Shown: piece after piece, positions 12,336-27,508 of the stretch
Numbering within the stretch: position 1 is the stretch's first letter
Layout of the letters: every line of letters starts with the position of its first letter
Assembly: GCA_964443875.1 (NCBI GenBank)
Contig: CAYUET010000002.1
Coordinates: 70,082-134,081 of the forward strand
DNA length: 64,000 bases
Origin: an uncultured bacterium
GTDB lineage: Bacteria > Auribacterota > JAFGBW01
Direction: 5' to 3'
Translations under genes and position numbers: made by a program
The notes under the pieces: model-generated
Told to the model about the DNA's origin: nothing
Seen by the model: the letters and a program-made list of their open reading frames with translations, nothing else
The model's database searches: none

Positions 12336-13514
12336 TTAAGAGTTTATCCTCAGGGAAAAGTCATCAGGAAGGGTTGGGTTAATAAAAGGGGGGATTTTGT
12401 AAAGTTTCTGATAAGCCTTAAGAATAGTCCCGTATTCATAAGGCTTAAGCCAATCCGGGGAAAGGGGAATATAGATGAAATGACCCTCCATAATCCGGCG
12501 GCAGTACTCAGTGGCGGTATTCAGATCCTGAAAAGGATAAAAAAAACCCTGTTCTCCCTGTTTCATAATACTTGTAATGCCTCCACGGAAGGGAATAACC
12601 ATAGGGATTTTGAGGTATAGGCATTCCAGTTCTGCCATGGAAAGTCCCTCAAAGCGTGAAGTTGAAACATAAAGAGTCAGACGGGAGTAGAATTCCCTCA
12701 TGTTTTTGTATATTCCCGGAAAGTGAACATTCGAAAGTTCCAGTTTTTCGGCATATTTCCGGCAGGCCTTCAAACCAATGGCTTCTCCCGCAATAAGAAA
12801 TTCTGCGGAAGGAAAGAGAAGAGAAAGTCTTTTAAAAAGAGTCAGAAGTGCAAAGGGCTGTTTTTGCTCTTTGAAATTTGAAACCGAACCGATGCAAAGG
12901 GATTTGGCAGGCGGCGGATTTTGAACGTTCAGTGTCAGCTCTTTTAAATCAAGACAGTCAGGGATTACATGGGCTTTGGAAGAGGAAGAACAAAGAGAGC
13001 AGCTTTGTGCACGTTTAAGGTTTTCCCGGGCAATAAAAACCAGAGAGTCGGACCTTTGGTTAAGCCAGGCTTCAAGTGCAACATAAATTTTTGTCAGAAG
13101 CGGATTAAGAAAATAATCATGTCCAAATCCGTGATAGGTATGAATAACCCCCTGTATTTTGGAACAAAACGCAGCAAAGCGGACTGCAAGAGAGGGTTTT
13201 GAGCAGTGTGTGTGAACAATATCAAATTTATTTTTACGGAAAAAACGGATCAGAGCAATTATAAGGAACAGATCTTTGAAAGGATTGAACGGCCTGCAAA
13301 GGAGAGGATTGCGGATTACCTGAATGCCCTGTTTTTTCAGGGCCTGATATTCCGGCTCAAGAGGGCCGGATTCCCCGTAAAAAAGTGAAAGATCAAAGCA
13401 TTGAGCCGAATTTAACAGGGATAGGAGGCGAAGCGTGGAAAGCTGTGCCCCGCCCATTTCAGCGGTGGTGATGACATGGAGGATTTTTATTTTTTGATTA
13501 TTCGCAGCATGCAT
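12336..13514 (-). CDS. Glycosyltransferase family 4 (GT-B fold)
   Basis: 392 aa. The N-terminus KILHVITTAEMGGAQ matches Glyco_trans_4-like_N. The C-terminal FEGLSMAELECLYLKIPMVIPFRGG carries the GT4 EX7E-type motif. Confidence 0.7.
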   Translation of the reverse strand: MHAANNQKIKILHVITTAEMGGAQLSTLRLLSLLNSAQCFDLSLFYGESGPLEPEYQALKKQGIQVIRNPLLCRPFNPFKDLFLIIALIRFFRKNKFDIVHTHCSKPSLAVRFAAFCSKIQGVIHTYHGFGHDYFLNPLLTKIYVALEAWLNQRSDSLVFIARENLKRAQSCSLCSSSSKAHVIPDCLDLKELTLNVQNPPPAKSLCIGSVSNFKEQKQPFALLTLFKRLSLLFPSAEFLIAGEAIGLKACRKYAEKLELSNVHFPGIYKNMREFYSRLTLYVSTSRFEGLSMAELECLYLKIPMVIPFRGGITSIMKQGEQGFFYPFQDLNTATEYCRRIMEGHFIYIPLSPDWLKPYEYGTILKAYQKLYKIPPFINPTLPDDFSLRINS

Positions 13515-13618
13515 GAGAATGTATTATCTTTTTTTAATGGAAAAAACATCCCTTTTTTCTATTGAAAAGTTGAAGTGAGTTTGGATAATACGAACATTTA
13601 ACCAAGAAAAGAGGTTTT

Positions 13619-13933
13619 ATGCAGGACTTTAAAAATGTAAAGGTGATAAAAAAAGCGAATATCTATTTTGATGGAAAAGTGACAAGCCGTACTGTTGTTT
13701 TCAGCGACGGCACCAAAAAGACGCTCGGAATCATGCTGCCGGGTGAATATGAGTTTGGTACTGGAGCCAAGGAAATAATGGAGATTCTGGAGGGCGATCT
13801 GGAGGTGCTTCTTCCCGGAGAAACGCTATGGGATCACTTTACTCAGGGTGATTCCTTTGAGGTGAAAGCTAATTCCAAATTCAGCCTCAAAGTTAAGACA
13901 GTTACAGATTACTGCTGTTCTTATCTGCAGTAA
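13619..13933 (+). CDS. ppnP: Pyrimidine/purine nucleoside phosphorylase PpnP (YaiE/DUF1255 cupin)
   Basis: 104 aa. The YFDGKV...[11 protein letters not shown]...[14 protein letters not shown]...FEV pattern is colinear with E. coli PpnP. An AAAGAGG RBS is present. Confidence 0.8.
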
Positions 13934-13960
13934 TGAGGATGTCCTTCATATGGAGGTGAT

Positions 13961-15226
13961 ATGACTTCTCTGGAAATCTGTTTCAGATGTCTGAAACACA
14001 GGGAGGTTGAAATATCACCCGATAAAAAATACTGTGTCTGCGGCGGGACTTTTCATTATTTTGATCATCCCTCAAGTCTTCGAATTCTTCATGCCGACAT
14101 GGATGCCTTTTTTGCCAATGTGGAAATTCATGACAACCCCGGGCTTAAAGGAAAACCTATCATTGTTGGGGGAAGTCCGAAAAGTCGAGGCGTCGTGTCG
14201 ACCTGTTCCTATGAGGCCCGAAAATTCGGTATTCATTCCTCCATGTCGCTTGCAAAGGCTTATACGCTTTGTCCCTCCGGAGTTTTCCTCCCGGTACGGA
14301 TGCAGCGTTATGCAGAAGTTTCCGCTCAGGTCTTTAAAATATTTGAATCCTTTACCCCTGAATATGAACCTTTAAGTGTTGATGAGGCCTTTCTCGATAT
14401 GAAAGGAACCGAAGGTCTGTTCGGACATCCTGTTGCGGCCGCTTTGAAATTGAAGCACAAGGTCAAAGAAAAAACCGGGATAACGGTTTCTGTCGGAGTT
14501 GCCCCCAATAAATTTTTAGCCAAGCTGGCTTCCGGAGAAAATAAGCCGGATGGCCTTTTTGTGGTCACCCCGGATTCCACAGACTCCTATCTCGACCGTT
14601 TGAGCATAGAAAATATGTGGGGCATAGGGAAAGCCACTTTGCCGGTGATGAAGGGAAACAGGATTAATACGATTGGAGACTTACGGCGCTGTTCTGAAGA
14701 AAAGCTCAAGAGCATTTTTGGAAATCAGTGGCAGCGTTTTTACAAGCTTTCACGGGGTGAGGATGACCGTAAGGTTGAAACAGAGTATGAGGCGGAGTCC
14801 ATAGGCAGGGAAACCACTCTGGAAAAGGATAGCTCAGATAAAGAGGAAATGAGGAAGATCCTCTGGGGGCTTTGTGAAAATGTTTCAAGACGGCTCTATA
14901 ATGATGGTGTAAGAGGAAAGAAAGTAACCTTGAAAATCAAAACAAGTCAGTTTATACTCATGACCCGTTCCCGGAAACTTTCCAACCCTGTTTATCTTGA
15001 TCTGGATATTTTTAACACAGTAAAGGACCTTCTGGAACAACTGGATTTAAGGGGGCTCAGGATAAGGCTTCTTGGTGTTTCGGTCTCTTGTTTCAAAAAA
15101 GAGGGGCCTGAGGAATTACTGCTCTTTGAAGACTCAAGGGAAATCCGCAAGGAAAAACTCAGCGAGGCCTTAAATAAGATCAAAGACAGGTTCGGGGATT
15201 CTGTGATTACCCGTGCTGTAAAGTAG
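13961..15226 (+). CDS. dinB: DNA polymerase IV with an N-terminal zinc-ribbon extension
   Basis: ILHADMDAFFANVEIHDNPGLKGKPIIVGG matches the DinB/UmuC palm. About 40 extra N-terminal residues carry CFRC...CVCGG. The RBS is GGAGGTGA. Confidence 0.9.
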   Translation: MTSLEICFRCLKHREVEISPDKKYCVCGGTFHYFDHPSSLRILHADMDAFFANVEIHDNPGLKGKPIIVGGSPKSRGVVSTCSYEARKFGIHSSMSLAKAYTLCPSGVFLPVRMQRYAEVSAQVFKIFESFTPEYEPLSVDEAFLDMKGTEGLFGHPVAAALKLKHKVKEKTGITVSVGVAPNKFLAKLASGENKPDGLFVVTPDSTDSYLDRLSIENMWGIGKATLPVMKGNRINTIGDLRRCSEEKLKSIFGNQWQRFYKLSRGEDDRKVETEYEAESIGRETTLEKDSSDKEEMRKILWGLCENVSRRLYNDGVRGKKVTLKIKTSQFILMTRSRKLSNPVYLDLDIFNTVKDLLEQLDLRGLRIRLLGVSVSCFKKEGPEELLLFEDSREIRKEKLSEALNKIKDRFGDSVITRAVK

Positions 15227-15533: not shown

Positions 15534-18500
15534 TTATTTGGAGTCCATGGAAGAAATCTGAAAATTTTTGAGAATCAAAGCACGGTTTTCCTGGGGCTGT
15601 TTTGTTTTTATTTTCCAGCGTTTGGGTCTGTCAGATTCACAAAGTCCAATCAGAGCAGTAATATTGGCTTCATCTTTCAGAGTCTTCGGGACAGGGATTA
15701 GATGTTCGAACTGGAGAATTCCATTCTTATCAAAATTTTTTGAATAGGGTGAGTGGATTTGAATGTCTTCCTGAAAAAGGAGCTCTCCTTTGGAATTTAA
15801 AAAATGGATGAATAGATTGAACGGCGGGAGTGTTTTCTGGAGACTTTTTCCGGAGCAGTAAAACATGAGATATTCACTGGGTTTGAGAAGATGAGAGGAA
15901 AAGGCGATTGTATTGATTTCTGCTTTTCCGTCAAACAGGGCGTTTACGGGGTGTTTTTGCCATCCTTTGGAATCAGGAAGGGAAGGGGGCTCTGGCAAAG
16001 GATTTGTCATTTCTGCTTCAATCTTTTTCAATGTGAGGGAATTCAGCATAAGCTCAGGAATACCGATCATTACCCGATCCGCTGATAATGTTTCTGAAAA
16101 AAGAAAATCTGTCTGAAAATCTGTTTTCCGGGCAATAAAGCCGTCTGCCCAGATCCACCGGTCGAGACACAGGGGGGTCTTTTTAAGAATATTTCCTTTG
16201 TTGAATAGGGTGATTTTCAGATCATTGAGTTTGATGAGATCAGGATTTCGAAGGCTGATCCGGATCTTTTTTAAAAGAGTGTCCGGCTTAAGGGGGTAGG
16301 AGAGCTGAATTTCGTGAAGGGAGGAGTCATAAAGAATCTGTGGATGGGTTAAACGGGTGAGAAACAGGGACGTTTTATCGGTAAGGGGGGCAAGAGCAGG
16401 CAGGGAAACATAGCTCCATCCTTGGGACTCGTGAACCGAATAAGGGAGATGATTGTCTGTAAAAAATTGTTTTAATCCATTGAGATGAATCGATTCGAGG
16501 AGGAATCCGTTTTCTCCGAAGGGATTGATCACTCTTTCGTTATAGTCCCAAAACAGATACCTGTCCCGGTAACAGGCTTTGTCCTGAATCAGCCGGGGAG
16601 TGGTTAATCCCGGAAGGTGTTTCTGGACGGAGGGAATGAGTGCGGGCGGAAGAAATACTTTTTCTTGAGGATTAAGGCTTTGGATCAGAGACAGGGCTTC
16701 TTTTTTATCGGGTTGAAGGGAGGCATGTTGTTTATAAACAAACAGTTCAGCGATTCCCCATGAATTTTTTCCGGAGAGAGTAAGACGTATTTGTCTGAGG
16801 GGGGTCTCTTTGAAGCGGATATCAATATGTCCGTTCGGAAGGAGACGTATATTACCGTTGAATTCCTGAAAAACAGGAATGTATCCCGGTATTTGTGCAA
16901 GGGTAAGCCATTGCCCGGCTTCCTGGGCTCCTTCCACGAGAATACCTTGAGGAATGGAGGTTACATCCGTTCCGGATACCAGCTCAATTCTGCAGAGGGC
17001 GACAGGAGTCTGACAGTTAAAAGTGAGAGAGGAGTTTTTTTCGGCGGGGGAGGTCCAGAGGGTTGAAAAATGGCGGTCCAGAAGATTTTGTCCAAAAGGC
17101 GCCTTTTTATTTTCCTGTATCGGAATAAGCAGGGCCGATATGTCTTCATAGGCATTGGGGGAAAAGGTGAAATCATGGAAAACCGTGTAGCTGCCCATGT
17201 CCCTCCGTATATAAGAGCAGACAAGAGATTTTAGCTGGGTTTCAAGAGCGTCTGGATTGGGGAGATTCATCCGGCTATCCGTGATCAGGGCAGTTTTTGA
17301 AGCGTCATCCACAAGTTTTAAAAATTCGATGTTTCTGAAACCGCCGAAGTCCGAACAGATAATTTTCTTTTTACTTTCAAAGGAAACCGACTGGGCGGTT
17401 GTGAAATGAGCGTAGGCCTTTGAAATGCCCTGTTGCTCCAGATAACGGATGACTTCTTCCGGGCCTTCCATGCGTTTTTTATCATGGGCGTAAAACTGCA
17501 TGAAGGCCAGATTATAGGGAAGGACAAGAACTATGAGTATGGAAAGGAAGGGAATGTGGAGGACAGGTTTCCAGGCGGCAAATCTTTCAAAAGCGGATAG
17601 AAAGGGAATGCCCAGAAAAACATAGAGAGGCAGCCCGTAGCGGCTTAGTTGTTCCCTGCCGTTCTGGCTGAAGATGAAGCATGCGGCGAAAAAAAGAAGT
17701 CCTGAAAAAAGCATCAAGGAAACAGCATTAGTCTCCTGTCTGTTTTTGAGGCGGTTGCGGAATGAGAAGAAAAAGGACATAAAGGCCGAAATCCACACCA
17801 GCGATGTAAGTCCTGTAATAAGAGGGCCCCAGGGGTGATGGGCGAATTCCCGGCAGCGGCCGAAGAGCATGGAGGATATGTTGATGAAATTGACAAGCTG
17901 GTCGAAGTATACGGAGAAATGGGCAAGTCCCCCTTTCATACGGAAGGTAAGCCACCCGTTTTCAATATTTCCCATCCACCAGGGAAGGCTTCCGATGAAG
18001 AAGAAAAGACTCAGAAGAACCAGGGCTTTTCCCCGGTATTCGGAACGAAGCCGGATGAAAAAGACAAGGGCTCCTGCCCCCAGAAAGGGAAGGATCATCA
18101 TAAAGGTCCAGAAGCCTATCCCGGCAATCAGTCCGGCAATGGAGATTGAAACGAGGGGAAAGGAAGCCTCGGAGTTTTTCAGGGCCTGAAGAAGAAGGAT
18201 GAGAAACCAGGTTCCCAGAGCAATAGTTTGCATATAGCCGCCCATAGGGGAGAGACTGTATTCATTAAAAACGAGAGGCGGAATTGTCAGAAAAAGGGCG
18301 GTATAGACGGGAAAACGGTTTCCGTTCATTTTACGTGAAAGAATGAGCATTCCGGCTATGAGAAAGAGGGAGGAGATGAAGGGGGACATGCGGAGCCAGA
18401 AGGTATCCGTGGAAAACAGGGAAAAGAAAAACGCGGCAAGGATCGATTCCAGGGACCCCAGATAGGGGGCCCCCCAGTAAAAGGGTGAAAAACGGCCTTC

Positions 18501-18635
18501 GAGCATATCCATGGCCATGAGCCCGGGAACCGCTTCGTCATAATAGACGTGTCCGAAGCAGGGAAGTTTCCAGAAGATGAAACGAAAGGCAAGGCCTGTT
18601 GCAATCAGAGCAAGTGAAGAGACCCATTTCAACAT
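15534..18635 (-). CDS. GT-C family glycosyltransferase, ArnT/PMT-like (GT39/GT83-type) with a large C-terminal periplasmic domain
   Basis: About 1,033 aa. TM1 is followed by YYDEAVPGLMAMDMLEGRFSPFYWGAPYLGSLE, carrying the DE motif and a PYxxKPPL-like loop of ArnT/PMT. It has at least 10 predicted TM helices. The roughly 550-aa C-terminus is a discoidin-like beta-rich domain. The ATG at 18635 lies 7 nt after the ubiA stop. The longer ORF from 18677 uses GTG and overlaps ubiA. Confidence 0.75.
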   Translation of the reverse strand: MLKWVSSLALIATGLAFRFIFWKLPCFGHVYYDEAVPGLMAMDMLEGRFSPFYWGAPYLGSLESILAAFFFSLFSTDTFWLRMSPFISSLFLIAGMLILSRKMNGNRFPVYTALFLTIPPLVFNEYSLSPMGGYMQTIALGTWFLILLLQALKNSEASFPLVSISIAGLIAGIGFWTFMMILPFLGAGALVFFIRLRSEYRGKALVLLSLFFFIGSLPWWMGNIENGWLTFRMKGGLAHFSVYFDQLVNFINISSMLFGRCREFAHHPWGPLITGLTSLVWISAFMSFFFSFRNRLKNRQETNAVSLMLFSGLLFFAACFIFSQNGREQLSRYGLPLYVFLGIPFLSAFERFAAWKPVLHIPFLSILIVLVLPYNLAFMQFYAHDKKRMEGPEEVIRYLEQQGISKAYAHFTTAQSVSFESKKKIICSDFGGFRNIEFLKLVDDASKTALITDSRMNLPNPDALETQLKSLVCSYIRRDMGSYTVFHDFTFSPNAYEDISALLIPIQENKKAPFGQNLLDRHFSTLWTSPAEKNSSLTFNCQTPVALCRIELVSGTDVTSIPQGILVEGAQEAGQWLTLAQIPGYIPVFQEFNGNIRLLPNGHIDIRFKETPLRQIRLTLSGKNSWGIAELFVYKQHASLQPDKKEALSLIQSLNPQEKVFLPPALIPSVQKHLPGLTTPRLIQDKACYRDRYLFWDYNERVINPFGENGFLLESIHLNGLKQFFTDNHLPYSVHESQGWSYVSLPALAPLTDKTSLFLTRLTHPQILYDSSLHEIQLSYPLKPDTLLKKIRISLRNPDLIKLNDLKITLFNKGNILKKTPLCLDRWIWADGFIARKTDFQTDFLFSETLSADRVMIGIPELMLNSLTLKKIEAEMTNPLPEPPSLPDSKGWQKHPVNALFDGKAEINTIAFSSHLLKPSEYLMFYCSGKSLQKTLPPFNLFIHFLNSKGELLFQEDIQIHSPYSKNFDKNGILQFEHLIPVPKTLKDEANITALIGLCESDRPKRWKIKTKQPQENRALILKNFQISSMDSK

Positions 18636-18642
18636 GATGGAT

Positions 18643-19644
18643 TTACCATTGCCAGAGAGGCATGATTTGATTCTCACTGATGTTGAAAAGGGAGTAAAGG
18701 CCTGGAATTTTACACAGCATCAGGACAATAAAGAGAATGAGACAGAACAGTGTGAAAAAAACAAAATTACGTTCCCTGTAGAGTTTCTCCGGTGCCTGAA
18801 CCGGGCTGTCCGTTTTAAAGCCCAGATAGAGGTAGTAGGTGAGAAATCCTGAGAGGAAAGGAAGCATGAGAATGAGTTCCAGGTGGTAGCGCACCATGAA
18901 AATGCCGGCAAAAAGGCTTCCGGTGACAGCATAGAAGAAGACACTGAAAAGAAGCCGTTCAGGGGTGTAGTGCCGAAAGGATTTTCGGTAGGCTCCGGCT
19001 TTTCCTTCCTGTTTGATTTCCCGAAGTTCCGCAAAGCGCTTGAGGGCCATAAAAAAGGCCCCGTACATCCAGTAGGCGATGAAAAGGGATACCGGAGGAA
19101 AACGGTCCGGAATCAGAATAAACCAGCCCATCACGAGACGGATGGGGTTGTTTATGGATTCGGAAAGGACATCCAGGTAAGGGATTTCCTTGGTGCGGAA
19201 AGGGGAAATATTGTAGAACATTCCCATGATCCACAGGGAGACTGCGGCCCAGCCAAAGGGAATATTGATAGAGAAGGAGAGGCTTATGCCCACACAGGCA
19301 AGAAAGATCCATTCGGCATAACCCAGGGGAATATTGATCAGACCGGAGGGTACGGGTCTGAATTTTTTTTTGGGATGATAAAGGTCAAAGGGGGCATCCA
19401 GGATTTCATTAATCACATAGTTGCTTGAAGCCACAAGGCAGATGGCTGAAACGGAGAGCAGAAGTTTTAAGGGCGAAATGACTGAAAAATCCGGAATCAG
19501 AAAAAAAGCCAGAATAATGCCCAGCCCCATGAAAACGTTTTTAAACCAGTGATCCGGTCTTGCGATATCCACATAGGGCCCGAATTTTCCGAGTGTTTTA
19601 TAGCGGGGAATGGAGGATTTTTCACTTCCATCAATGGTTTTCAT
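18643..19644 (-). CDS. UbiA-family polyprenyl-phosphate 5-phosphoribosyltransferase (DPPR-synthase type)
   Basis: 333 aa with 8-9 TM helices. NEILDAPFDLYHPKKKFRPVPSG matches the NDxxDxxxD...HPxKRFRPIAAG signature of mycobacterial Rv3806c-type decaprenyl-phosphate phosphoribosyltransferases. A second Asp-rich region is present. Confidence 0.75.
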   Translation of the reverse strand: MKTIDGSEKSSIPRYKTLGKFGPYVDIARPDHWFKNVFMGLGIILAFFLIPDFSVISPLKLLLSVSAICLVASSNYVINEILDAPFDLYHPKKKFRPVPSGLINIPLGYAEWIFLACVGISLSFSINIPFGWAAVSLWIMGMFYNISPFRTKEIPYLDVLSESINNPIRLVMGWFILIPDRFPPVSLFIAYWMYGAFFMALKRFAELREIKQEGKAGAYRKSFRHYTPERLLFSVFFYAVTGSLFAGIFMVRYHLELILMLPFLSGFLTYYLYLGFKTDSPVQAPEKLYRERNFVFFTLFCLILFIVLMLCKIPGLYSLFNISENQIMPLWQW

Positions 19645-19809
19645 GATAAGCCCCGGACCTTTCTAAAAAGGATGTTTCCTTGAAGTATAAAAATGTTGTT
19701 TATCAACACTTTTTTCAGATACGTCAATAAAATTATATGCTGGAATTCGCTTTACAAAAAGTTCTGTTTGAAGGAATCTTAAAAACTAATTTTTAAGGAA
19801 TTTAAATAA
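19645..19809. promoter_or_regulatory. AT-rich divergent promoter region between the ubiA-GT-C operon and the GT-C paralog
   Basis: The spacer is 165 bp with no ORF and contains TGTTG-N5-CAACA. The downstream ATG has an AAGGAA RBS. Confidence 0.4.
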
Positions 19810-22800
19810 ATGTTTTTGTTCAAACGGAGCCTTTTCTGGACCTCAGCAGCAATTCTTGTCTTTGTTTTTACACGGCTGTTTTTCATCTCTCTTCCCTCCT
19901 ATGCGGTCACTTATTTTGATGAGGCGATCACCGGGCTTATGGGGATGCATCTTTTAAGGGGTGAGTTTCCCGTATTTTACTGGGGTTGTCCCTATCTAGG
20001 GCCTCTGGAGGCCCTGTTTGCAGCTCTTTTTTTTCTTATCACCGGAGAAGCCTCCACTTTTGCCTTAAGGCTTTCCCCACTCCTGGCCTACCTGATCTAT
20101 GGAGGAGCCCTTTTAGCCCAGGCAAGACTCACCATGAAAAAGGAAGTCTTTTATTTCTGTTTTCTGTTTCTGATTTTTCCGCCTTATTATCTTCTTCATT
20201 TTTCTCTGACCGCCATCGGGGATTACATGAATACGGTCATGCTTGGAAGTTTAATGATACTTCTGACCTCTATCATGATTACGGATGAAAAACGGCTGAA
20301 TTTACGGAATGTTTTTCTTCTGGGGCTTCTTTCGGGTTTTTCCTTCTGGACTTTTATTCAGACTGCGCCTGTGATTCTGGCCTGCCATTTGATTCTGTTT
20401 CTCCGGATGCGTTTCAGCTATCCGGGAATCCCTCTGCTTCTTTCCTTTCTGGGATTTGTTCTGGGGAGTCTTCCCTTCTGGATGTGGAACTGGAATAACG
20501 ATTTTTTAACCTTTACCATGAAAGTCACGGGGGCTGACCCGGGAAGTTTTCCGGGTCATGCCCGTAATTATTATGAGGTGTTAAAACTACTTCTGGGTAA
20601 CTATTCCCTTCAGCCCCAGGGATACAGGACTTTTACCGCAGGCCTTGCCGCTTTTTTTCTGATCGCGGTTCCCTGTCTTCTTTTTTCCGGACAGGGTCTT
20701 TTTGCGAGACTTAAGAAACCTGATCCTCTTCTCCTTTTGATTGTTGCTTTTACCGGAAACTCTCTGGCTTATATTGTAAGCTCGCATGGAGATCTTAAAC
20801 TCCCGCGTTATCTTCTTCCTCTTTATTCCTCGCTTCCTGTTCTTCTGCCTTTTGCCTTATCTTTTCTGCTTAAAGGGCGTTATTTTTTTGTTTTTTCAAC
20901 AGGGCTTCTTCTTTTGATGAGCCTTCCTGAAAATATCCGCTTTACGAAAAGTAATCTCGATCCTGCCTATATCAATCGTTTCACGCCCAGAAGAGCGGAA
21001 TTAAATGAGTTTTTTGATTATCTGGGACAGAATAATATCCGGCATCTTTATGGGGCCTACTGTTTTACTCAGATATTGACTTTTGAGTCCAAAAAATCGG
21101 TGACTGCTGCGGATTATTCGGGTTTCAGAAATATGAGTTACCTGCGGGAGGCGGACAATGACCCTCGCACCGGGCTTGCCGCAGAGGATCTTCTGGGGGC
21201 TCCGGACAGTGATTCCCTGGAATCCACAATCAAGCTTTTGACGAGGAAATATCAGAAGAAAAAATGCGGCCGTTTTACTGTTTTTCATGATTTTAAAATT
21301 AATGACGCCTCTGATGCCCCTTTGCCCTCCGGCAGCATTCAGAGTATTTCGGTATGTGAACAGCAGGAACGGAAAAATTTACTGAATGACAGGATTTTTG
21401 AAACCTTCTGGGAAACGCAAAAGCCCATGACCGGCAAAGAGTGGATAACTTTGACTTTTGTGAAACCGGTGAGGGTGACGCGGCTTCTTCTGATTCCGGG
21501 GACGGATTATCTTGCCTTTCCAAGAGGGCTTCGCATGGAAGGAACGGATGTCCGCGGGCACAGGATCAAGCTTGCAGAGGCGAAATCCATTTGCGGATCT
21601 TTCAAGGTTTTTCATGGAAAGCCAAGGCTTTTTGGGAAAGGGGAAATTGAGATCCGTCTGGACAAAGAAACAGAGCTTTCTTCTGTCACACTTTTTCAGA
21701 CCGGGGAGGATCGCTTTTTTCATTGGAAAATAGGGGAGATTATCCCTTTTGAACAGAAACAGGAAAATTCTCTTTTAATCAGCTCTGTGCCTGAAATTCC
21801 GGAGGACAGATTTCTTGTTACAACCCCGGAGCTATATCTCAAACATTATTATAAAACTTTCCATGATCAGCAAACCATTCCTCTTTATCCGCCCATGCTG
21901 ACTTATCTGCACTGGTCAAGGGTATGGGACTATGACACTCCCAAAAGGTATTTGAATATGGATTCTGATCTTTTGTTTATTTTGCCGCCTGATCATTGGG
22001 AGTATTTTAAAAATTATCTTCAGTCCCATGAAATAGCCTATAGTCTGAAGGAAACGCACAACCTCGTTACTGTGCAAACACAGTCCTGCGGGATTCCGAA
22101 AGATCGAAAATACATCCCTTTGCTGCCCCGGACAAAATGGGCAGAGACTTTTAATCAAAATCCGGTATTTGAAGCTTTTTTTCCTGAGCCTGTCTTGCTT
22201 TATGGTTTTAAACTGGCAAAACCGCCATGTGGATTTCAGTGGAAAGATCTGATGATTGAGATTCTGGATTCGGGCGGAGAATGGAAGTCTGTTGCTTTTA
22301 AAACTCATGAGGCCTATTGGACGGATGAAGTGATTCTGGAATCCTGCCGTGAGGGCTCAGAGGTACATTTTGAAAAACCGGTTCCTGCTCAAAAAGTTCG
22401 GTTTATTCTTCATGGCCTTTACAAAACACCTCAGGATCTTGAGGATTTCTGCAAATCAGAGATTATTGGGGATTTTAAATCCGGGAAGGACGAGTATCTG
22501 GTAAAAAAGACTGAGGCTTCGGGTTCTGTGGCAATTTTTGAAGAAACCCTTTCTCTGGATGATTTTTCTCTTAATCCTTCAAACCCTCATCCGGGCGGGT
22601 ATCTTGAGGTTCATGCCCGTTTTTCATGGCTTAAAAAGAAGAGAAAGAATATGGCTTCTACTTTTTTCCTTCATGCCCTGGACTCCACAGGGTATAAAGT
22701 TTTTCAGCTGGACAGAGATCTGGATTTTGGTAGAAACCCTCAGGATTTAAAAAAACCTTTTGAGAGGAAATATTTTATAAAAATCCCTGAATCCATTAAG

Positions 22801-22950
22801 GAGAAGTCTTTAAGGGTGATTATCGGGCTTTATGATCAGCGAACGGGTAAGCGTTCCAAGCCCTCTTCTTCTCATCCTGTCGACATGAGGTCTGTTGAGC
22901 TGGGGGAGATTTTTATTGCCCCTGATGTTCACAGACCAGAAGATCAGTGA
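19810..22950 (+). CDS. GT-C family glycosyltransferase, ArnT/PMT-like, paralog of 15534..18635
   Basis: 1,046 aa. YFDEAITGLMGMHLLRGEFPVFYWGCPYLGPLE aligns residue by residue with the paralog. Homology continues through the C-terminal domain (FESKKSV...YSGFRNMSYLRE versus FESKKKI...FGGFRNIEFLK). Confidence 0.75.
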   Translation: MFLFKRSLFWTSAAILVFVFTRLFFISLPSYAVTYFDEAITGLMGMHLLRGEFPVFYWGCPYLGPLEALFAALFFLITGEASTFALRLSPLLAYLIYGGALLAQARLTMKKEVFYFCFLFLIFPPYYLLHFSLTAIGDYMNTVMLGSLMILLTSIMITDEKRLNLRNVFLLGLLSGFSFWTFIQTAPVILACHLILFLRMRFSYPGIPLLLSFLGFVLGSLPFWMWNWNNDFLTFTMKVTGADPGSFPGHARNYYEVLKLLLGNYSLQPQGYRTFTAGLAAFFLIAVPCLLFSGQGLFARLKKPDPLLLLIVAFTGNSLAYIVSSHGDLKLPRYLLPLYSSLPVLLPFALSFLLKGRYFFVFSTGLLLLMSLPENIRFTKSNLDPAYINRFTPRRAELNEFFDYLGQNNIRHLYGAYCFTQILTFESKKSVTAADYSGFRNMSYLREADNDPRTGLAAEDLLGAPDSDSLESTIKLLTRKYQKKKCGRFTVFHDFKINDASDAPLPSGSIQSISVCEQQERKNLLNDRIFETFWETQKPMTGKEWITLTFVKPVRVTRLLLIPGTDYLAFPRGLRMEGTDVRGHRIKLAEAKSICGSFKVFHGKPRLFGKGEIEIRLDKETELSSVTLFQTGEDRFFHWKIGEIIPFEQKQENSLLISSVPEIPEDRFLVTTPELYLKHYYKTFHDQQTIPLYPPMLTYLHWSRVWDYDTPKRYLNMDSDLLFILPPDHWEYFKNYLQSHEIAYSLKETHNLVTVQTQSCGIPKDRKYIPLLPRTKWAETFNQNPVFEAFFPEPVLLYGFKLAKPPCGFQWKDLMIEILDSGGEWKSVAFKTHEAYWTDEVILESCREGSEVHFEKPVPAQKVRFILHGLYKTPQDLEDFCKSEIIGDFKSGKDEYLVKKTEASGSVAIFEETLSLDDFSLNPSNPHPGGYLEVHARFSWLKKKRKNMASTFFLHALDSTGYKVFQLDRDLDFGRNPQDLKKPFERKYFIKIPESIKEKSLRVIIGLYDQRTGKRSKPSSSHPVDMRSVELGEIFIAPDVHRPEDQ

Positions 22951-24493
22951 AAGTTTTGACCGGGACAAAGGTGCTTTCCGGGATTTCTGCAAAAAGGGTA
23001 TTCCAGTAATACATGCCTCCGTTCCATAAGCCCGGAAGCTCAAGAGCTTTCAGGTTTCTGCCTTCATGCGATTTAATCGAGATGATCCCGCCTTCCGGTT
23101 CCGAAAAATGAGTCAGATCATAGGCCTCCCCTTTGTAGTTTTTGAGGCCCAGGACCATGAAAACCGGATTAAAATGTGTGGAGCTTCTGACCATGGACAT
23201 TACTTTATCGGAGTTCAGATCGATCTGTGAAGTTTCCACAATCTGAAGAGAACGTGATTTATCGTGGTTCTCCACCCAGAAGGGGAGTCCTCCGATTTCT
23301 CCCTTGTTGCGCACAAGTCCGCAAATCCTCACGGGTCGGTTGAGTGTATGGCGCAGATAGTTTATCTGGTTTTCAAGGCTTTCAGAATGAAGAGCGGGCG
23401 GCGGTGTAAGGGAGAGTGTTTCTTTGATGAATTTAACAATCTGCTGCACATGGCTTTTATCGGGTTTGGTGAGATCCAGTTCTTTTTGATAATTGAAAAT
23501 TTTTTCCTGGATTCCGAGTAAAAGTCCGGCAAGCATTCTCATGTTTTGAATGGAAGGTGTTTTCGCTGAAAGGGTCTGCACATTATCAATGTTTTTAATG
23601 AAGACAATATCGTACTCCCCGGAGACTTGGCTGAGATTCCGGAGAAGAGCGCCGTGTCCCGCAGGGCGTAAGACAAGGCGGCCTTTTGAATCACGGAAAG
23701 GCTTGTTTTCCAGATCCAGAGCGAGGGTATCGGAAGATTTGGATTGAACGGAGAAGCTGACGGAGCTGGGCCGCAGGACCTCTGTTTCGGCGTTTTTACG
23801 GCACTGAATATATTCTTTCAGGGGATCTAAAAAATCTTCGGAAATAGTGAAATGTACATGGGAATTTTTTGGAAAGGGACTGCAGGTTAAAGCAGCTTCG
23901 AAAAGATGTTCATCCACAGGGCTTAAAGATTGCTGGTCATTTTTATGAAATTTGATCAGGGCCTTGGGTATTTTTCCGTAGTTCAGTCCTTTGGGGGTCA
24001 GGAGGATATCGAGTATTTCTCTATAGTGTTCGCGGGAGATGAGTTCTTTTACTGTTTTTCCTGTTTGTTCCCTGAGACAAGCCTGGAGGTCTTCAAAAAA
24101 GGCGAATTTCTGAATGTTGTTCAGAAATTGTTCAAGGCTCAAAAAGTCCGGATCTTTGTTGATGACTCCGTGGTAGAAGACGGAACGGCTGATGGAGGGA
24201 TAGCTGTTGAGCAGGGAAAGCAGGGGTTTGAACATCCGGGAAGCCGCGCCGGAGGCGGGGATAAAGTGGAGCCAGAGTTTTGACTGGATTTCTCTTTTAA
24301 AATAGTTTTCAGCATCCTGAATTTCTGCAGGATTCAGCATTACAATGCCTTCCCCAGGCGTACAGGGCTTGATTAGTTTTAACGGTGAGAATCCGCGGGT
24401 AATTGTTTGAATCTGGGATTCAATCTGGGGCATATTTAATCCGTGTTCTTCAACTTGCCGGATATCAGCCTGAGAAAAGGAATAGTCTGTCAA
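22913..24493 (-). CDS. UDP-sugar pyrophosphorylase-like nucleotidyltransferase (UDPGP-like, resembles DUF4301 family)
   Basis: 526 aa. IPASGAASRMF parallels the LNGGLGTxMG motif of UGPase/UAP family enzymes. LRPAGHGALLRNL parallels their PDGNGGLYRAL motif. The 3' end overlaps the convergent GT-C gene by 38 nt. Confidence 0.5.
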   Translation of the reverse strand: MTDYSFSQADIRQVEEHGLNMPQIESQIQTITRGFSPLKLIKPCTPGEGIVMLNPAEIQDAENYFKREIQSKLWLHFIPASGAASRMFKPLLSLLNSYPSISRSVFYHGVINKDPDFLSLEQFLNNIQKFAFFEDLQACLREQTGKTVKELISREHYREILDILLTPKGLNYGKIPKALIKFHKNDQQSLSPVDEHLFEAALTCSPFPKNSHVHFTISEDFLDPLKEYIQCRKNAETEVLRPSSVSFSVQSKSSDTLALDLENKPFRDSKGRLVLRPAGHGALLRNLSQVSGEYDIVFIKNIDNVQTLSAKTPSIQNMRMLAGLLLGIQEKIFNYQKELDLTKPDKSHVQQIVKFIKETLSLTPPPALHSESLENQINYLRHTLNRPVRICGLVRNKGEIGGLPFWVENHDKSRSLQIVETSQIDLNSDKVMSMVRSSTHFNPVFMVLGLKNYKGEAYDLTHFSEPEGGIISIKSHEGRNLKALELPGLWNGGMYYWNTLFAEIPESTFVPVKTFTDLLVCEHQGQ

Positions 24494-24710: not shown

Positions 24711-24840
24711 TTAGACCATAAAAGCCTTAAATGTTAATATTATGTTGTTTTTTTGAAAAAAATATTGTAATGTATTTTTTGATGATGTTGATCAGAATTT
24801 AATGAATGGCAGGGATCTTAAGAAAGAGGAGCTGAAAAGG

Positions 24841-26229
24841 ATGAAAACAACAAAAAGATTATCTGTTAAAGGGAGTGCGCTGATTGTATCTATTATTTTT
24901 TCAACCCTTATCGGGATGGGGACTGTTGCGCTTCAGAATTTTCAATACCTGACACACAAGACGAACCATAAATCTTTTGAGGGTAATAAAGCCCGCTATA
25001 TGGCGGAAGCTGGTATTATGCTTGCCCTTGATGAGCTTAATAACCAGACTTCCTCCCCTTTTTCCGGAGCCGGGGATTTTTACTGGGCTTCTTCAGGCGG
25101 TAATATTTATACCCTCTCCCGTTCGGATATCGGGAGTGTGAATGTGACGGTTGATTATACAGACCCCAATTCCGTGGTGATTAAAAGTTATGGATTCTAT
25201 CAGAGTGTAAGAAAAGGTTTAGAAGTTAAGGCTATTAAGGCAGGCTCTTCAGCCATTAATCCCATTTTCCCGGGAGCCATTGCCGCCCAGTCCGACATTG
25301 TGACCATGAATTCTTTTACCGTGGATTCCTTTGCAAATGGGGTCTATGACGCTCTTCATCCGGGCTACAACGGGCATGTGTTTACCAAAGATGACAGTAT
25401 CAATTTAAAATCAGGAACCATTGTCAGAGGTCATGTTTACGCCCCTCCAAGTCCTGTTCCGGTTTTCAATACCGGAGAAAATTCCAACGGTAATGTGTAC
25501 TGGACCGCTGCAGATGAAACTGCAGCACATAATTGCGGCGGGAGTACAGGGGTTTTTACAGAGTTTAAACCGGTCGCTATTCCTCCTCATCTTTTAATGA
25601 CAGGCTCGCCTACTGCAGTTCTGTCAAGCGGGGGGAGTTATGGAAGCGGTCATTATACAGGGGCAACGGGTCTTGGAAACTTGACTTTTACCGGCGGTTT
25701 TTATAAAATAGATGGGGATATGGCTCTTGGCAACAGCAAGGTGCTGACCATTAAAGGAAACAGTGATATCTATATCACAGGAGACTTGTCTCTGGGGAAC
25801 GGAGCGATGATAATCAATTATACCCTGAAAGCGGATGGATCTGATCCTGACACCTTGCCTGACGTGGATAAGGTTTATACCCTGAGAATTTATGTGGACG
25901 GCGGACTCACCTTTTCTCAGGGCAATGAAGTGAATATGTACTGCAATTATGATGTCACCAAGCTTCAGCTTTACGGATGCGGGAACGGCTATTTTGCAAC
26001 CCCAGCTAAAAAAATCAATATTAAAAACGGAGGGTCATTTTTCGGATTTGTCTATGCCCCGTATTATGAGGTGGAATTTAATAATGCCAATGAGGTTTTC
26101 GGCGCCTTTGCCTCGTATCAGATTATTCCGAAAAACGGATCAAAGATTCATTTTGATGAACGTTTATGGGGCTTTGTGGACGGGGTGGCCCCGGATAAAT
26201 ACGGATTAAGCGGATGGGAGGAAATATGA
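24841..26229 (+). CDS. PilX-like minor pilin (type IV pilus or pseudopilus assembly protein, PilX_N domain)
   Basis: The N-terminus KGSALIVSIIFSTLIGMGTVALQN...KARYMAEAGIMLALDEL fits the PilX N-terminal domain. The ATG at 24841 has an AGAGGAG RBS. An alternative upstream ATG lies at 24802. Confidence 0.65.
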   Translation: MKTTKRLSVKGSALIVSIIFSTLIGMGTVALQNFQYLTHKTNHKSFEGNKARYMAEAGIMLALDELNNQTSSPFSGAGDFYWASSGGNIYTLSRSDIGSVNVTVDYTDPNSVVIKSYGFYQSVRKGLEVKAIKAGSSAINPIFPGAIAAQSDIVTMNSFTVDSFANGVYDALHPGYNGHVFTKDDSINLKSGTIVRGHVYAPPSPVPVFNTGENSNGNVYWTAADETAAHNCGGSTGVFTEFKPVAIPPHLLMTGSPTAVLSSGGSYGSGHYTGATGLGNLTFTGGFYKIDGDMALGNSKVLTIKGNSDIYITGDLSLGNGAMIINYTLKADGSDPDTLPDVDKVYTLRIYVDGGLTFSQGNEVNMYCNYDVTKLQLYGCGNGYFATPAKKINIKNGGSFFGFVYAPYYEVEFNNANEVFGAFASYQIIPKNGSKIHFDERLWGFVDGVAPDKYGLSGWEEI

Positions 26230-26421
26230 AGAAGACAAACCAGACGCATTATTTGTTTAAAAGCGGATTTCACCCGAATATGGACCGGCATTGCAAATAT
26301 TCGGGAGCCAGGGTCAGGCCTATGCCGCATAGGACTGGCATGCGTAAAAAATAATCGCTTTTAAAAAAATAATAAGAGTGATCTGTGCCGTTTTACCTTT
26401 TAAACCTGAAAGGTCGAAACC

Positions 26422-26880
26422 ATGGGGATATTATGTAATCATCACGATTCCAGGATCCGGATTAAGGGATTTTCCCTGATCGAACTCCTGATCGCCATTT
26501 TTATATTTTTTCTGATTTTTTCAGGAGTCATGAAAAGTCTTGCCTCTATTTTCACTGTTCAAAAGGATTCCCGTGAACTGGCGATCGCCTCTCAGATTCT
26601 AGGTGATATTGCCGAAAAAATCACCTATATGAGAAATACGGCCGGATGGGATGTGATTGATTCTTCCACCCTGGTTTTTAACTCAACGACGGTTGCTGAA
26701 TTGAATTCTCTCCCCGGGAGTTCGGTCAATGTTGCAGTTGTACCTTATAAGGATGCATCCGGCGCAGATACGAATACTTTGAAAAGGATTACGATTACGC
26801 TGAATTGGACTTCCAAAAATGGGAAAGCAAAATCAGAGGCCTTTGAAATGGTGTTGTCAAAACCGCCGTCAGGAATATGA
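26422..26880 (+). CDS. Prepilin-type N-terminal cleavage/methylation domain protein (PilV-like pseudopilin)
   Basis: KGFSLIELLIAIFIFFLIF is a class III signal (G|FxLIE) followed by a hydrophobic helix. The protein is 152 aa. Confidence 0.7.
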   Translation: MGILCNHHDSRIRIKGFSLIELLIAIFIFFLIFSGVMKSLASIFTVQKDSRELAIASQILGDIAEKITYMRNTAGWDVIDSSTLVFNSTTVAELNSLPGSSVNVAVVPYKDASGADTNTLKRITITLNWTSKNGKAKSEAFEMVLSKPPSGI

Positions 26881-26884
26881 GTTT

Positions 26885-27508
26885 ATGAAAAAAAGAGCTT
26901 TTTCAATAGTGGAGCTGCTTATTTCTCTGACTCTGCTTGCGGTGGTGAGTATAGGTTTTTTTTCTGCCTTCCGGTTTTACCAGGCAAGAGGGCTTGCCTC
27001 CACCCAGAAAGCGATAAATCTTAATGCCATGCGTTCCTCTCTGGATAAGCTCAAACAGGATCTCCTGATTTCCAAAGGGCTTTATAACAATGATTATTCA
27101 AAAGTTCACGCCGTGAATGACCCCTTTAATGTTTATCAGACAAAAGATAATCAGCTGATTGTCAAAATTCCTTCGGTTTATTCTACCAATGAGTTTATTG
27201 ATGTATCTGATCCGGAATATACCGATTATTATTTTTATTACTTATCCGGAGGCGAGCTCATCAGAAAAACATTCAGAAGCACAAAAACGGGTTCATCCCG
27301 GCCAACGGATGATTATATTCTTGCCAAAGGATTGAAATCCATTCGTTTCAGTGACGGATTACATACTTTAGGGACTCTTTCCAGCGAAAAGCTGTTGAGC
27401 ATCCGGCATATTCAGATTGTCATTACCGCAGAGGTGCAGAACACGCTGAACGGGACTCCCCAGACTGAAACATTGACCTTGAATGTTTCCTTTCGTAATT
27501 ATATGTAA
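26885..27508 (+). CDS. Prepilin-type N-terminal domain protein (PilW-like pseudopilin)
   Basis: MKKRAFSIVELLISLTLLAVVSIGFF has Ala rather than Gly at position -1. The ATG at 26885 was chosen over the longer ORF from 26819. Confidence 0.65.
   Translation: MKKRAFSIVELLISLTLLAVVSIGFFSAFRFYQARGLASTQKAINLNAMRSSLDKLKQDLLISKGLYNNDYSKVHAVNDPFNVYQTKDNQLIVKIPSVYSTNEFIDVSDPEYTDYYFYYLSGGELIRKTFRSTKTGSSRPTDDYILAKGLKSIRFSDGLHTLGTLSSEKLLSIRHIQIVITAEVQNTLNGTPQTETLTLNVSFRNYM

Follow-up and report, generated by a model that had tools for sequence, protein, structure and literature searches.

A UbiA-family gene beside two GT-C-fold paralogs: a candidate three-gene unit for extracytoplasmic glycosylation

Introduction

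Two large membrane proteins, here called A and B, are encoded close together in a 64-kb window (the whole stretch of DNA analysed, 64,000 nucleotides) from an uncultured bacterium, and their GT-C glycosyltransferase fold raises the question of which activated sugar they use and to what they attach it. A precedent comes from O-antigen decoration, where a PPPRS together with a GT-C enzyme carrying a carbohydrate-binding module (CBM) has been shown biochemically to add Ribf/Xylf (Kelly et al., 2024, PMC11127046). In Citrobacter youngae O1/O2 the components are ORF15 (PRP-PPPRS), the MATE flippase ORF14 and ORF12, a GT-C/GT136 enzyme with a CBM (Kelly et al., 2024, PMC11127046). At the present locus a PPPRS-like gene, U, is likewise encoded together with GT-C enzymes. 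The reading that we favour, to which we give a probability of roughly 0.55, is that U, A and B form a three-gene unit for extracytoplasmic glycosylation with a lipid-linked pentofuranose, a variant of the three-component system.

Organisation of the locus

Paralog A occupies positions 15534–18635 on the minus strand and encodes a GT-C-fold membrane glycosyltransferase with a CBM32-like domain; paralog B, at 19810–22950 on the plus strand, encodes a second such protein of 1046 aa. The open reading frame list begins A at a GTG at 18677 (15534–18677, minus strand, 1047 aa), but the ATG at 18635, giving 1033 aa, is the more likely start and is the one called on Logan contig L009. A sequence-only reading of this DNA had described A and B as a direct divergent pair around a shared AT-rich spacer of 165 bp. 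The spacer exists (19645–19809; GC 27.9% vs 43.8% for the window), but that description missed an intervening ubiA-like open reading frame, U (18643–19644, minus strand, 333 aa), which sits between the two paralogs. The stop codon of U lies 7 nt upstream of the ATG of A on the same strand, again with the same call on L009; U precedes A and is tightly coupled to it, with B diverging across the 165 bp. Since U lies between A and B, the spacer separates a ubiA-like/A operon from B and is common to U and B. Neither a sigma-70 consensus nor an Rfam match was found in the spacer, from which the sequence-only reading had suggested that the two transferases may be co-regulated, and divergent adjacency is the sole basis for linking B to U. 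Pilin-like genes, minor-pilin-like in character, lie 2–4 kb downstream, with a convergent DUF4301 gene between them and B; this region holds a DUF7305 gene (24802–26229) and prepilin-motif genes (26422–27508).

Two GT-C paralogs with predicted lectin domains

End-to-end BLASTP alignment bears out the earlier claim that the two products of about 1,040 aa are genuine full-length paralogs: they are 27% identical (E 2e-96), far beyond chance, the extracytoplasmic part of some 640 aa included, and all six peptide strings quoted in that claim are found in the two frames. The duplication is old, and B takes a basal position in the tree of the subclade. In the AlphaFold models a membrane domain is followed by soluble domains, the transmembrane GT-C core comprising aa 1–401 of A (17433–18635, minus strand; DSSP helices) and aa 1–407 of B (19810–21030, plus strand; model helices), so that the membrane domain measures about 400 aa and not the 650 or so first proposed. 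A hydropathy scan gives 7–9 strongly hydrophobic segments.

The GT-C fold itself, also proposed from the sequence, is upheld by Foldseek matches of both models to solved GT-C enzymes. For A (model pLDDT 73.7) these include AftD (E 3e-8), ArnT (5f15, E 5e-8, TMt 0.63; TMt 0.61–0.63 across the ArnT matches), EmbB (1e-6) and PglB, in addition to CBM32 structures, and the best whole-chain match is ArnT/PMT; B matches AftD and EmbA-EmbB/EmbB. On their own sequences A and B reach none of the Pfam/NCBIfam thresholds, and neither matches Pfam PMT_2 (PF13231) at E <= 0.01. The PMT_2 cut-off of 26.1 bits is passed by the homologs P0003 (41.5 bits), P0009 (36.2) and P0007 (29.4), and the link of A and B to this family is one of transitive homology only. 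Membership of the Emb family was considered and rejected, there being no Pfam Emb/arabinosyltransferase match for either protein, PMT_2 matches among the homologs, and ArnT/PMT as the best whole-enzyme structure. A and B represent an uncharacterised GT-C family present in two copies.

An Asp-Glu pair just after the first transmembrane helix (TM1) is a PMT-type motif. It is present as Asp33-Glu34 in A (18534–18539) and Asp37-Glu38 in B (19918–19923), with the codons verified in both cases, and would be the catalytic acidic pair. The Asp (D33 in A, D37 in B) is invariant in a 15-sequence family alignment, and each paralog retains 14 of the 14 family-invariant residues.

Outside the membrane, A has a discoidin/CBM32-like beta-sandwich at aa 496–636 (16728–17150, minus strand), delimited by model strands and supported by Foldseek matches to CBM32 and F5/8 type C domains; D520, W527, W626 and E630 within it are invariant in the family alignment. 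Its C-terminal Ig-like beta-sandwich (aa 893–1027; 15555–15959, minus strand; model pLDDT about 75–90) aligns with the C-terminal domain of P0004-type relatives. The model of B shows a small alpha/beta periplasmic domain containing an FESKK...GFRN motif (aa 410–500; 21037–21309, plus strand), a discoidin/CBM32-like domain (aa 505–650; 21322–21759, plus strand) and a C-terminal Ig-like beta-sandwich (aa 905–1040; 22522–22929, plus strand; pLDDT about 80–90), and it is to the last of these that we would assign the NPC2-type beta-sandwiches in the Foldseek list of the whole model. With Pfam F5_F8_type_C (PF00754) B scores 20.4 bits, below the cut-off of 28.2, and A gives no match; the homologs score 35.8–60.5 bits, and P0003, P0007 and P0009 pass. 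The sequence-only reading had proposed a discoidin/CBM-like fold in the C-terminal parts, and a CBM32-type beta-sandwich does follow the membrane domain in both paralogs; it is predicted to be a sugar-binding (lectin) domain.

A phosphoribosyltransferase-like UbiA protein

U matches Pfam UbiA well above threshold (E 1e-21, 77.9 bits vs a cut-off of 34.2), and the only PDB chain that it finds at E <= 1 is the DPPR synthase 8j8j (E 2e-12). Its top four NCBIfam matches all fall below their cut-offs: the first is PRK08238, a model named only 'UbiA family prenyltransferase' (the match spans 194–389 of 482 profile positions), and the other three are DPPR synthase models, whose equivalog cut-offs are missed by a wide margin (71.8 bits vs 234; 69.7 vs 207). 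Of the UbiA enzymes, DPPRS is the one that U resembles most in these comparisons. In DPPRS/PPPRS the NDxxDxxxD motif lies in cytoplasmic loop II and an R/E motif in loop IV; replacing the Asp at the second position of the former in ORF15 (D248A) gives an inactive enzyme (PMC11127046). U has NEILDAPFD at 19384–19410 and KRFAE at 19027–19041, the latter corresponding to KRYAE of Rv3806c (KRxAE common to both). U shares the NExxDxxxD form with each of its 120 closest relatives, as against NDxxDxxxD in Rv3806c and ORF15. This difference and the missed cut-offs count against a phosphoribosyltransferase role. U is probably a decaprenyl-phosphate-phosphoribosyltransferase-type enzyme that makes a lipid-linked ribose-type donor.

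Gene neighbourhoods and the source of the donor

Across 80 metagenomic loci, relatives of U usually stand in a module of GT-C, HAD phosphatase and UbiA genes. In 46 of 64 metagenomic loci a HAD phosphatase frame directly precedes the UbiA gene, and a GT-C gene lies nearby in 12 of the 19 loci with long flanks; three further contigs have a GT-C gene near the U relative, two of them with HAD directly adjacent, and the matches include a HAD-UbiA fusion (P0255). The protein relatives, from delta-proteobacterial and Rokubacteria MAGs, point to an environmental bacterium as host.

Seen from the GT-C side, it is context evidence only that would assign a polyprenyl-phosphate-linked sugar donor to A and B. 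In the window and in L008, L011 and L013 the GT-C gene directly follows a gene of the UbiA or GT2 type, which means that this slot is repeatedly occupied by genes of kinds whose known products synthesise lipid-linked sugar donors. In family members at a greater distance a small GT2 gene overlaps the GT-C start instead, and around P0008 and P0010 the succession of DegT aminotransferase, small GT2 and GT-C repeats the ArnB/ArnC/ArnT order. A and B could accordingly use a polyprenyl-P-hexose or -aminosugar made by an unlinked GT2 synthase of the ArnC/GtrB type, the adjacency of U being incidental or belonging to another pathway. ArnT as the best whole-chain match of A is in keeping with this, as are the lack of GT-C genes of the A/B family at all 80 U-type loci and the absence of a UbiA gene from two of four subclade contexts (P0003 in L007, with ~2.6 kb of downstream sequence only, and P0045 in L018); the last two findings also count against the pentofuranose reading. 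Against the GT2 alternative stand the same-strand gap of just 7 nt between U and A, the failure of tblastn to find a GT2 of that type in the window, and the close A/B relative P0002, in a UbiA, HAD, GT-C arrangement in which a UbiA 50% identical to U lies directly upstream together with HAD. We regard an unlinked GT2 donor as unlikely.

Proposed mechanism and remaining alternatives

On the pentofuranose reading, homology and gene context suggest that U, as a DPPR-synthase-type enzyme, would transfer 5-phosphoribose from PRPP to polyprenyl phosphate at the inner membrane face. A phosphatase would strip the 5-phosphate and a flippase would move polyprenyl-P-ribofuranose outward, both of them encoded elsewhere. 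No HAD gene for the first of these steps turned up in the window, whether with Pfam or with three HAD queries in tblastn. Among window frames of at least 150 aa there is no Pfam match to a MATE/SMR flippase, the multi-TM frames being TRAP, Na/H exchanger, CNNM and CDP-alcohol transferase proteins. An epimer of the donor is possible if epimerases are encoded elsewhere in the genome, neither DprE1/E2 nor an ORF13-type epimerase being found in the 64 kb (Pfam, tblastn). These absences count against the reading. A and B would act as ArnT-like GT-C enzymes through the Asp-Glu after TM1, their CBM32-like lectin and further beta-sandwich domains lying in the periplasm according to the modelled fold. 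We infer both donor and acceptor: the pentofuranose would pass to a surface glycan held by the lectin domain. EmbA-EmbB is a heterodimer of paralogs, and Pmt1-Pmt2 likewise; the two old paralogs here might pair in this way, or might serve two acceptor sites or linkages.

The acceptor might instead be protein, with A and B as PMT-like or TfpW-like O-glycosyltransferases acting on proteins that are secreted or exposed at the surface, such as the pilin-like ones encoded downstream. The Asp-Glu motif and the PMT_2 matches of the homologs would fit, as would the prepilin-motif and DUF7305 genes, and TfpW of Pseudomonas aeruginosa, described as arabinosylating pilins, offers a precedent. Such a role is improbable, however: a lectin domain of the CBM32 type points to a glycan as acceptor, A and B have neither the PMT MIR domain nor a TfpW-type TPR (Pfam, model), the DUF4301 gene intervenes before pilin-like genes of the minor type, and P0002 lies in a polysaccharide cluster that also contains genes for GT2, GT4 and Bac_transf proteins.

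The sequence-only reading had likened A and B to EmbA/EmbB/EmbC and suggested that they may be a priming and an elongating enzyme, or enzymes for two acceptors. In its first form this would give a pair that builds a homopolymer, such as an arabinan- or ribofuranan-like chain. In its favour, there are two paralogs and Foldseek places AftD and EmbA-EmbB/EmbB among their top matches; the analogy is indeed better than that reading knew, because the locus holds a DPPR-synthase-like UbiA gene, as mycobacterial arabinan synthesis uses ubiA (Rv3806c). The Pfam result for the arabinosyltransferase families and the lack of DprE1/E2 genes in the window tell against it, and in the Gram-negative systems that have been characterised, single residues are attached as side chains (PMC11127046). 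An Emb-like pair is more doubtful still, and the priming and elongating roles are speculative. That one paralog is a non-catalytic partner of the other, as an old duplication would permit through subfunctionalisation, is very improbable, the Asp-Glu pair and all 14 invariant residues being kept in both. Neither outcome that the sequence-only reading had named as refuting it, C-terminal domains of another fold or a paralog with a substituted DE motif, is observed.

Comparison with known systems

The preferred reading, glycosylation with a lipid-linked pentofuranose, brings the locus closest to C. youngae. Here too a UbiA-family PPPRS-like gene adjoins a GT-C gene with a predicted C-terminal beta-sandwich carbohydrate-binding domain, and both have a putative catalytic acidic residue in the region of the first transmembrane helix; an Arg-Tyr pair (R349/Y350 in ORF12, R333/Y334 in B) may correspond, in position only. 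The HAD gene that usually lies directly upstream of U-type UbiA genes elsewhere follows the same order as the ORF15 PRP-PPPRS fusion. The window, in contrast, has no HAD/PRP domain or gene, MATE flippase or epimerase, the locus lies outside any obvious O-antigen cluster, and U carries NExxDxxxD instead of NDxxDxxxD. The two GT-C paralogs here measure about 1,040 aa, with four domains outside the cytoplasm, whereas C. youngae has one GT-C of 652 aa; those here are PMT_2-related with discoidin/CBM32.

The mycobacterial arabinan machinery (Rv3806c, EmbA/B/C, AftA-D) similarly combines a DPPR-synthase-like enzyme with several paralogous CBM-bearing GT-C transferases, and the best Foldseek matches of A and B include AftD and EmbB. 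The resemblance is confined to the fold, without Emb/Aft membership in sequence; the CBM here is of the CBM32/discoidin type, DprE1/E2 genes are absent from the window and the host is not an actinobacterium. The likeness to ArnT (GT83) is structural, the transmembrane core and alpha/beta periplasmic domain of A superposing on ArnT over its entire chain (TMt 0.63), and extends to ArnB and ArnC in the distant relatives that follow aminotransferase and GT2 genes. A and B differ in some 550 extra residues (CBM32-like and further domains) and in an upstream donor-synthase slot held by a UbiA-type enzyme, not ArnC. TfpW, whose donor is proposed to be the product of a DPPRS ortholog (PMC11127046), is another Gram-negative GT-C with a proposed polyprenyl-P-pentofuranose donor, and B has pilin-like genes nearby; TfpW itself modifies protein and has its gene linked to a pilin gene, whereas the pilin link here is one of proximity only. 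Taken together, the locus resembles an uncommon variant of a recently reported mechanism by which bacteria decorate surface sugars, and does not appear to be a new type of system.

Organisation of the locus and its surroundings

The genes for the two paralogous GT-C glycosyltransferases, A (15534-18677, minus strand; 1047 aa if a GTG start is used) and B (19810-22950, plus strand; 1046 aa), do not face each other across a shared spacer, as the sequence-only reading had it. A third open reading frame, U (18643-19644, minus strand; 333 aa), intervenes, and the 165-bp spacer (19645-19809) separates U from B. The size and AT-richness of the spacer had been described correctly (27.9% GC vs 43.8% window-wide), and neither a promoter and terminator scan nor an Rfam search of it returned anything informative. 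U ends in a TAA codon at 18645-18643, and the most plausible start of A is an ATG at 18635-18633, 7 nt past this stop. The same start was chosen in a separate gene call on the Logan contig L009, giving a protein of 1033 aa. U thus sits between A and B, tightly coupled to the A gene that it precedes on the minus strand; the two are arranged like an operon, and B is oriented away from U. As L009 shows 100% identity to the window across 7,002 nt it confirms the assembly, not conservation, and since L010, from the same sequencing series, encodes an identical U protein, the two contigs were rejected as independent support for conservation. The public NCBI gene call for A (P0023) begins at an internal Met and, at 748 aa, loses most of the membrane domain; that annotation is corrected here.

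The wider neighbourhood of A, U and B is of a housekeeping nature (nusA-infB-truB-ribF, coaBC), so the unit does not lie within a classical polysaccharide gene cluster. A GT4 glycosyltransferase is encoded at 12336-13514 (minus strand), with only ppnP and a dinB-type polymerase IV gene between it and A (region 12336-15226). On the other side, a DUF4301 protein (22913-24493, minus strand; Pfam E 1e-173), with no NCBIfam or PDB relative, is encoded convergently to B, the two genes sharing 38 nt at the 3' end of B. The DUF4301 gene is followed, 2-4 kb from B, by a cluster of minor-pilin or pseudopilin type (24802-27508, plus strand), comprising a DUF7305 protein of 475 aa and two small proteins with a prepilin N-methylation motif, and by a 1269-aa membrane protein (27685-31494, plus strand) with two stretches matching CNNM and a CBS match, apparently an unusually long, duplicated protein of the CNNM/CorC type. 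Further along are a GH94-family phosphorylase-like protein (43613-46351, minus strand; 912 aa), a divergent gene for an 826-aa protein with a DUF1152 match (46528-49008, plus strand), and a 2721-aa open reading frame with right-handed beta-helix/NosD, CarboxypepD_reg and SdrD_B domains (52744-60909, plus strand), probably encoding a giant surface protein. Across the whole 64 kb (1-64000) there are no tRNA genes and no Rfam families at the gathering threshold.

Fold and family of A and B

The paralogy of A and B is genuine. BLASTP gives a single full-length alignment (27% identity, 44% positives, E 2e-96) that takes in the membrane domain as well as the long C-terminal region, and the peptide strings quoted in the sequence-only reading are all present in the two translations. 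Neither protein reaches threshold against Pfam or NCBIfam, B having a sub-threshold Pfam match to F5_F8_type_C, and neither has a match in a PDB sequence search. As direct family assignment is empty, homologues and predicted structures are needed. Three relatives (P0003, P0007 and P0009) exceed the Pfam cut-offs for both the GT-C family PMT_2 and F5_F8_type_C. AlphaFold models, built from a 15-sequence alignment for each protein (mean pLDDT 75.1 for B and 73.7 for A; pTM 0.66 for both), have a common architecture in which a helical membrane domain of about 400 aa is followed by a small alpha/beta domain with a FESKK...GFRN motif, a beta-sandwich at about residues 500-650, a poorly modelled middle region containing an alpha/beta unit and a further beta-sandwich, and a confidently modelled C-terminal Ig-like beta-sandwich. 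The top Foldseek matches of the B model are AftD, EmbA-EmbB and AglB; the A model matches AftD (E 3e-8) and ArnT (E 5e-8; ArnT-normalised TM-score 0.61-0.63 over about 585 columns), and further EmbB, PglB, OST and CBM32 domains. These matches indicate an ArnT-like GT-C core of about 500 aa followed by a domain with a CBM32-type lectin fold, so that both proteins are predicted to combine the two folds, as had been guessed before any structure was modelled.

A word-index search returned only 14 matches for B and four for A, with relatives of 800-930 aa. The impression of a very rare family was a sensitivity artefact of the word index, because an exhaustive HMM search, run on 1.84 billion representatives, yields 4,063 clusters with E <= 1e-30. 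At least 150 of them have E < 1e-130; these best 150 are mostly of 650-1,000 aa with a few shorter fragments, and the majority span the membrane, alpha/beta and discoidin parts. Source names are confined to 'discoidin domain-containing protein' or 'hypothetical protein', and no paper linking GT-C to discoidin came up in a full-text literature search. In a neighbour-joining tree A, B and four relatives (P0002, P0003, P0045 and P0049) form one small subclade in which B branches first and A is the sister of these four relatives, implying that the duplication is old. Relatives in metagenome-assembled genomes (MAGs) occur in tandem arrays, of four copies in L005 and of two or three in L002, where a YfhO-family membrane protein adjoins the array; a supposed tandem paralogue beside P0003 in L007 was rejected (BLASTP E 0.62).

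U belongs to a large UbiA subfamily

U, the key gene overlooked in the sequence-only reading, is a member of the UbiA family (Pfam E 1e-21). Its best NCBIfam match is PRK08238, named only 'UbiA family prenyltransferase', over positions 194-389 of a 482-position profile, followed by three decaprenyl-phosphate phosphoribosyltransferase models; all of these matches are far below the equivalog cut-offs. In the PDB, the Mycobacterium tuberculosis decaprenyl-phosphate phosphoribosyltransferase (DPPR synthase; 8j8j, E 2e-12) is the sole match with E <= 1. U and the mycobacterial enzyme, Rv3806c, have the KRxAE motif in common, and U has NEILDAPFD where Rv3806c and ORF15 of Citrobacter youngae have NDxxDxxxD. 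The NExxDxxxD form is found in 120/120 of the closest U relatives, whereas characterised DPPR and polyprenyl-phosphate phosphoribosyltransferases (PPPRS) have NDxxDxxxD; the variant is thus a trait of the subfamily and not a lesion. Computationally, U is DPPR synthase-like.

This NE-type subfamily is very large (over 6,400 clusters reach E <= 1e-10; one of the matches, P0255, is a HAD-UbiA fusion), and its usual setting is a module of small GT-C, HAD and UbiA genes. On three long contigs with U relatives a PMT_2 GT-C gene lies within 5 kb, inside polysaccharide gene clusters, the order being PMT_2 GT-C, HAD phosphatase, UbiA in two of the three. A metagenome scan for U relatives gave 80 loci, on which ORF-level HMM searches were run: of the 64 loci with enough upstream sequence, 46 have a HAD open reading frame as the immediate same-strand upstream neighbour of the UbiA gene, and a small PMT_2-type GT-C of about 470-520 aa is present in 12 of the 19 loci with long flanks. 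U-type genes are therefore recurrently associated with HAD and GT-C genes; a GT-C of the A/B family occurs in 0/80.

A proposed donor for A and B and its alternatives

The one other pairing of a UbiA gene with an A/B-type GT-C that was found involves P0002, which is closely related to A and B. Its contig has the order UbiA, HAD, P0002, followed by GDSL, GT4, GT2 and Bac_transf genes, and the UbiA protein is 50% identical to U (E 4e-108). More distant members, among them P0008 and P0010, are preceded by genes for a DegT aminotransferase and a small GT2 that overlaps the GT-C start, which is the ArnB/ArnC/ArnT order. This arrangement is seen on L011, L012 and L013, where the stop of the GT2 gene overlaps the GT-C start; on L013 a radical SAM/SPASM gene comes immediately after the discoidin GT-C. 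Other contexts have neither arrangement, and a genome-collection scan with a 4-sequence alignment gave six MAG loci that lack a UbiA gene and have heterogeneous neighbours. The position just upstream of the GT-C is thus taken by a GT2-type gene in some lineages and by a UbiA-type gene in the A/B subclade. This exchange of donor synthases is the chief reason to think that the product of U is used by A and, through paralogy and adjacency, by B.

On this basis U would make polyprenyl-phosphate-5-phosphoribose from PRPP, the lipid-linked product would be processed and exported by an unlinked phosphatase and an unlinked flippase, and A and B would move the pentofuranose onto a glycan to which the lectin domain is bound. 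A and B may differ in the acceptor site or linkage that they serve, or may pair up as a heterodimer like EmbA-EmbB and Pmt1-Pmt2. We give this full pentofuranose pathway a probability of roughly 55%. The main rival is a hexose or aminosugar donor for A and B, supplied by an unlinked GT2, in keeping with the ArnC-like neighbours of the distant members; given the occupant of that upstream position in the A/B subclade, and with no GT2 gene found in the window by tblastn, we regard it as rather unlikely. Protein glycosylation by A and B appears improbable. The pilin-like cluster near B recalls pilin arabinosylation by TfpW in Pseudomonas aeruginosa, a link that here consists of proximity only.

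The analogy with Emb drawn in the sequence-only reading is apt for how the system would work, although A and B are not members of the Emb family. In another, likewise improbable reading, A and B would form an Emb/Pmt-like heterodimer that polymerises a pentofuranose chain (ribofuranan or arabinan-like) with donor from an NE-type PPPRS without a dedicated phosphatase. Were this true, a polyprenyl-phosphate-pentofuranose polymerase with an ArnT-like core and lectin domains would exist outside Actinobacteria, and the discoidin GT-C family, with its thousands of clusters, would be one of donor-swappable surface-glycan modifiers. Emb-like polymerisation as such, to which the EmbA-EmbB and EmbB structural matches are congenial and the separate family membership is not, seems quite improbable. 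That one paralogue is a pseudo-enzyme partner is very improbable, as the Asp directly after TM1, invariant in the 15-sequence alignments, is retained in both (D33 in A, D37 in B), as are all 13 further invariant residues. The following Glu is present in both, so the loss of the DE motif that had been named as a refuting condition is absent. A and B are very probably, going by models and alignments, two active-looking GT-C enzymes with CBM32-like domains.

Relation to known pentofuranose systems

If the pentofuranose pathway is correct, the three-component pathway described in 2024 is not bound to one GT-C family, and ArnT-like transferases with discoidin lectin domains can plug onto the same lipid-linked ribose donor. 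This would give a large unnamed GT-C family a testable function and provide a handle on how donor-synthase swapping diversifies surface glycans; the locus is an example of such swapping, and introduces no new mechanism or principle.

In C. youngae O1 and O2, alpha-linked Ribf and Xylf side chains are put on the O antigen outside the cytoplasm, as shown biochemically (Kelly et al., 2024; PMC11127046). In the donor enzyme ORF15 a HAD phosphoribose phosphatase at the N-terminus is fused with a PPPRS of the UbiA type, a MATE protein is the flippase predicted by bioinformatics and gene context, and the GT-C ORF12, founder of GT136, has a C-terminal CBM that binds unmodified O antigen; serotype O2 additionally has an epimerase (PMC11127046). 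The strategy is widespread, with several GT-Cs in some systems (Kelly et al., 2024; PMC11127046), and the common metagenomic module of small GT-C, HAD and UbiA reads as a split-gene version of it.

The locus studied here differs in several respects. Whereas ORF15 carries a HAD domain, U has neither such a domain nor an adjoining HAD gene, and three HAD queries run by tblastn detected no HAD phosphatase in the window, where tblastn searches for small PMT_2 and GT2 genes were likewise empty. In contrast to the MATE flippase and O2 epimerase of C. youngae, no flippase or epimerase is linked to the locus, and Pfam searches of the window's open reading frames of at least 150 aa (plus ppnP) found no flippase, epimerase or HAD. 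Unlike in C. youngae, there are two copies of the GT-C partner, both from the large discoidin-type family. The locus is therefore best filed as a variant of the three-component pentofuranose systems, built on an uncharacterised GT-C family.
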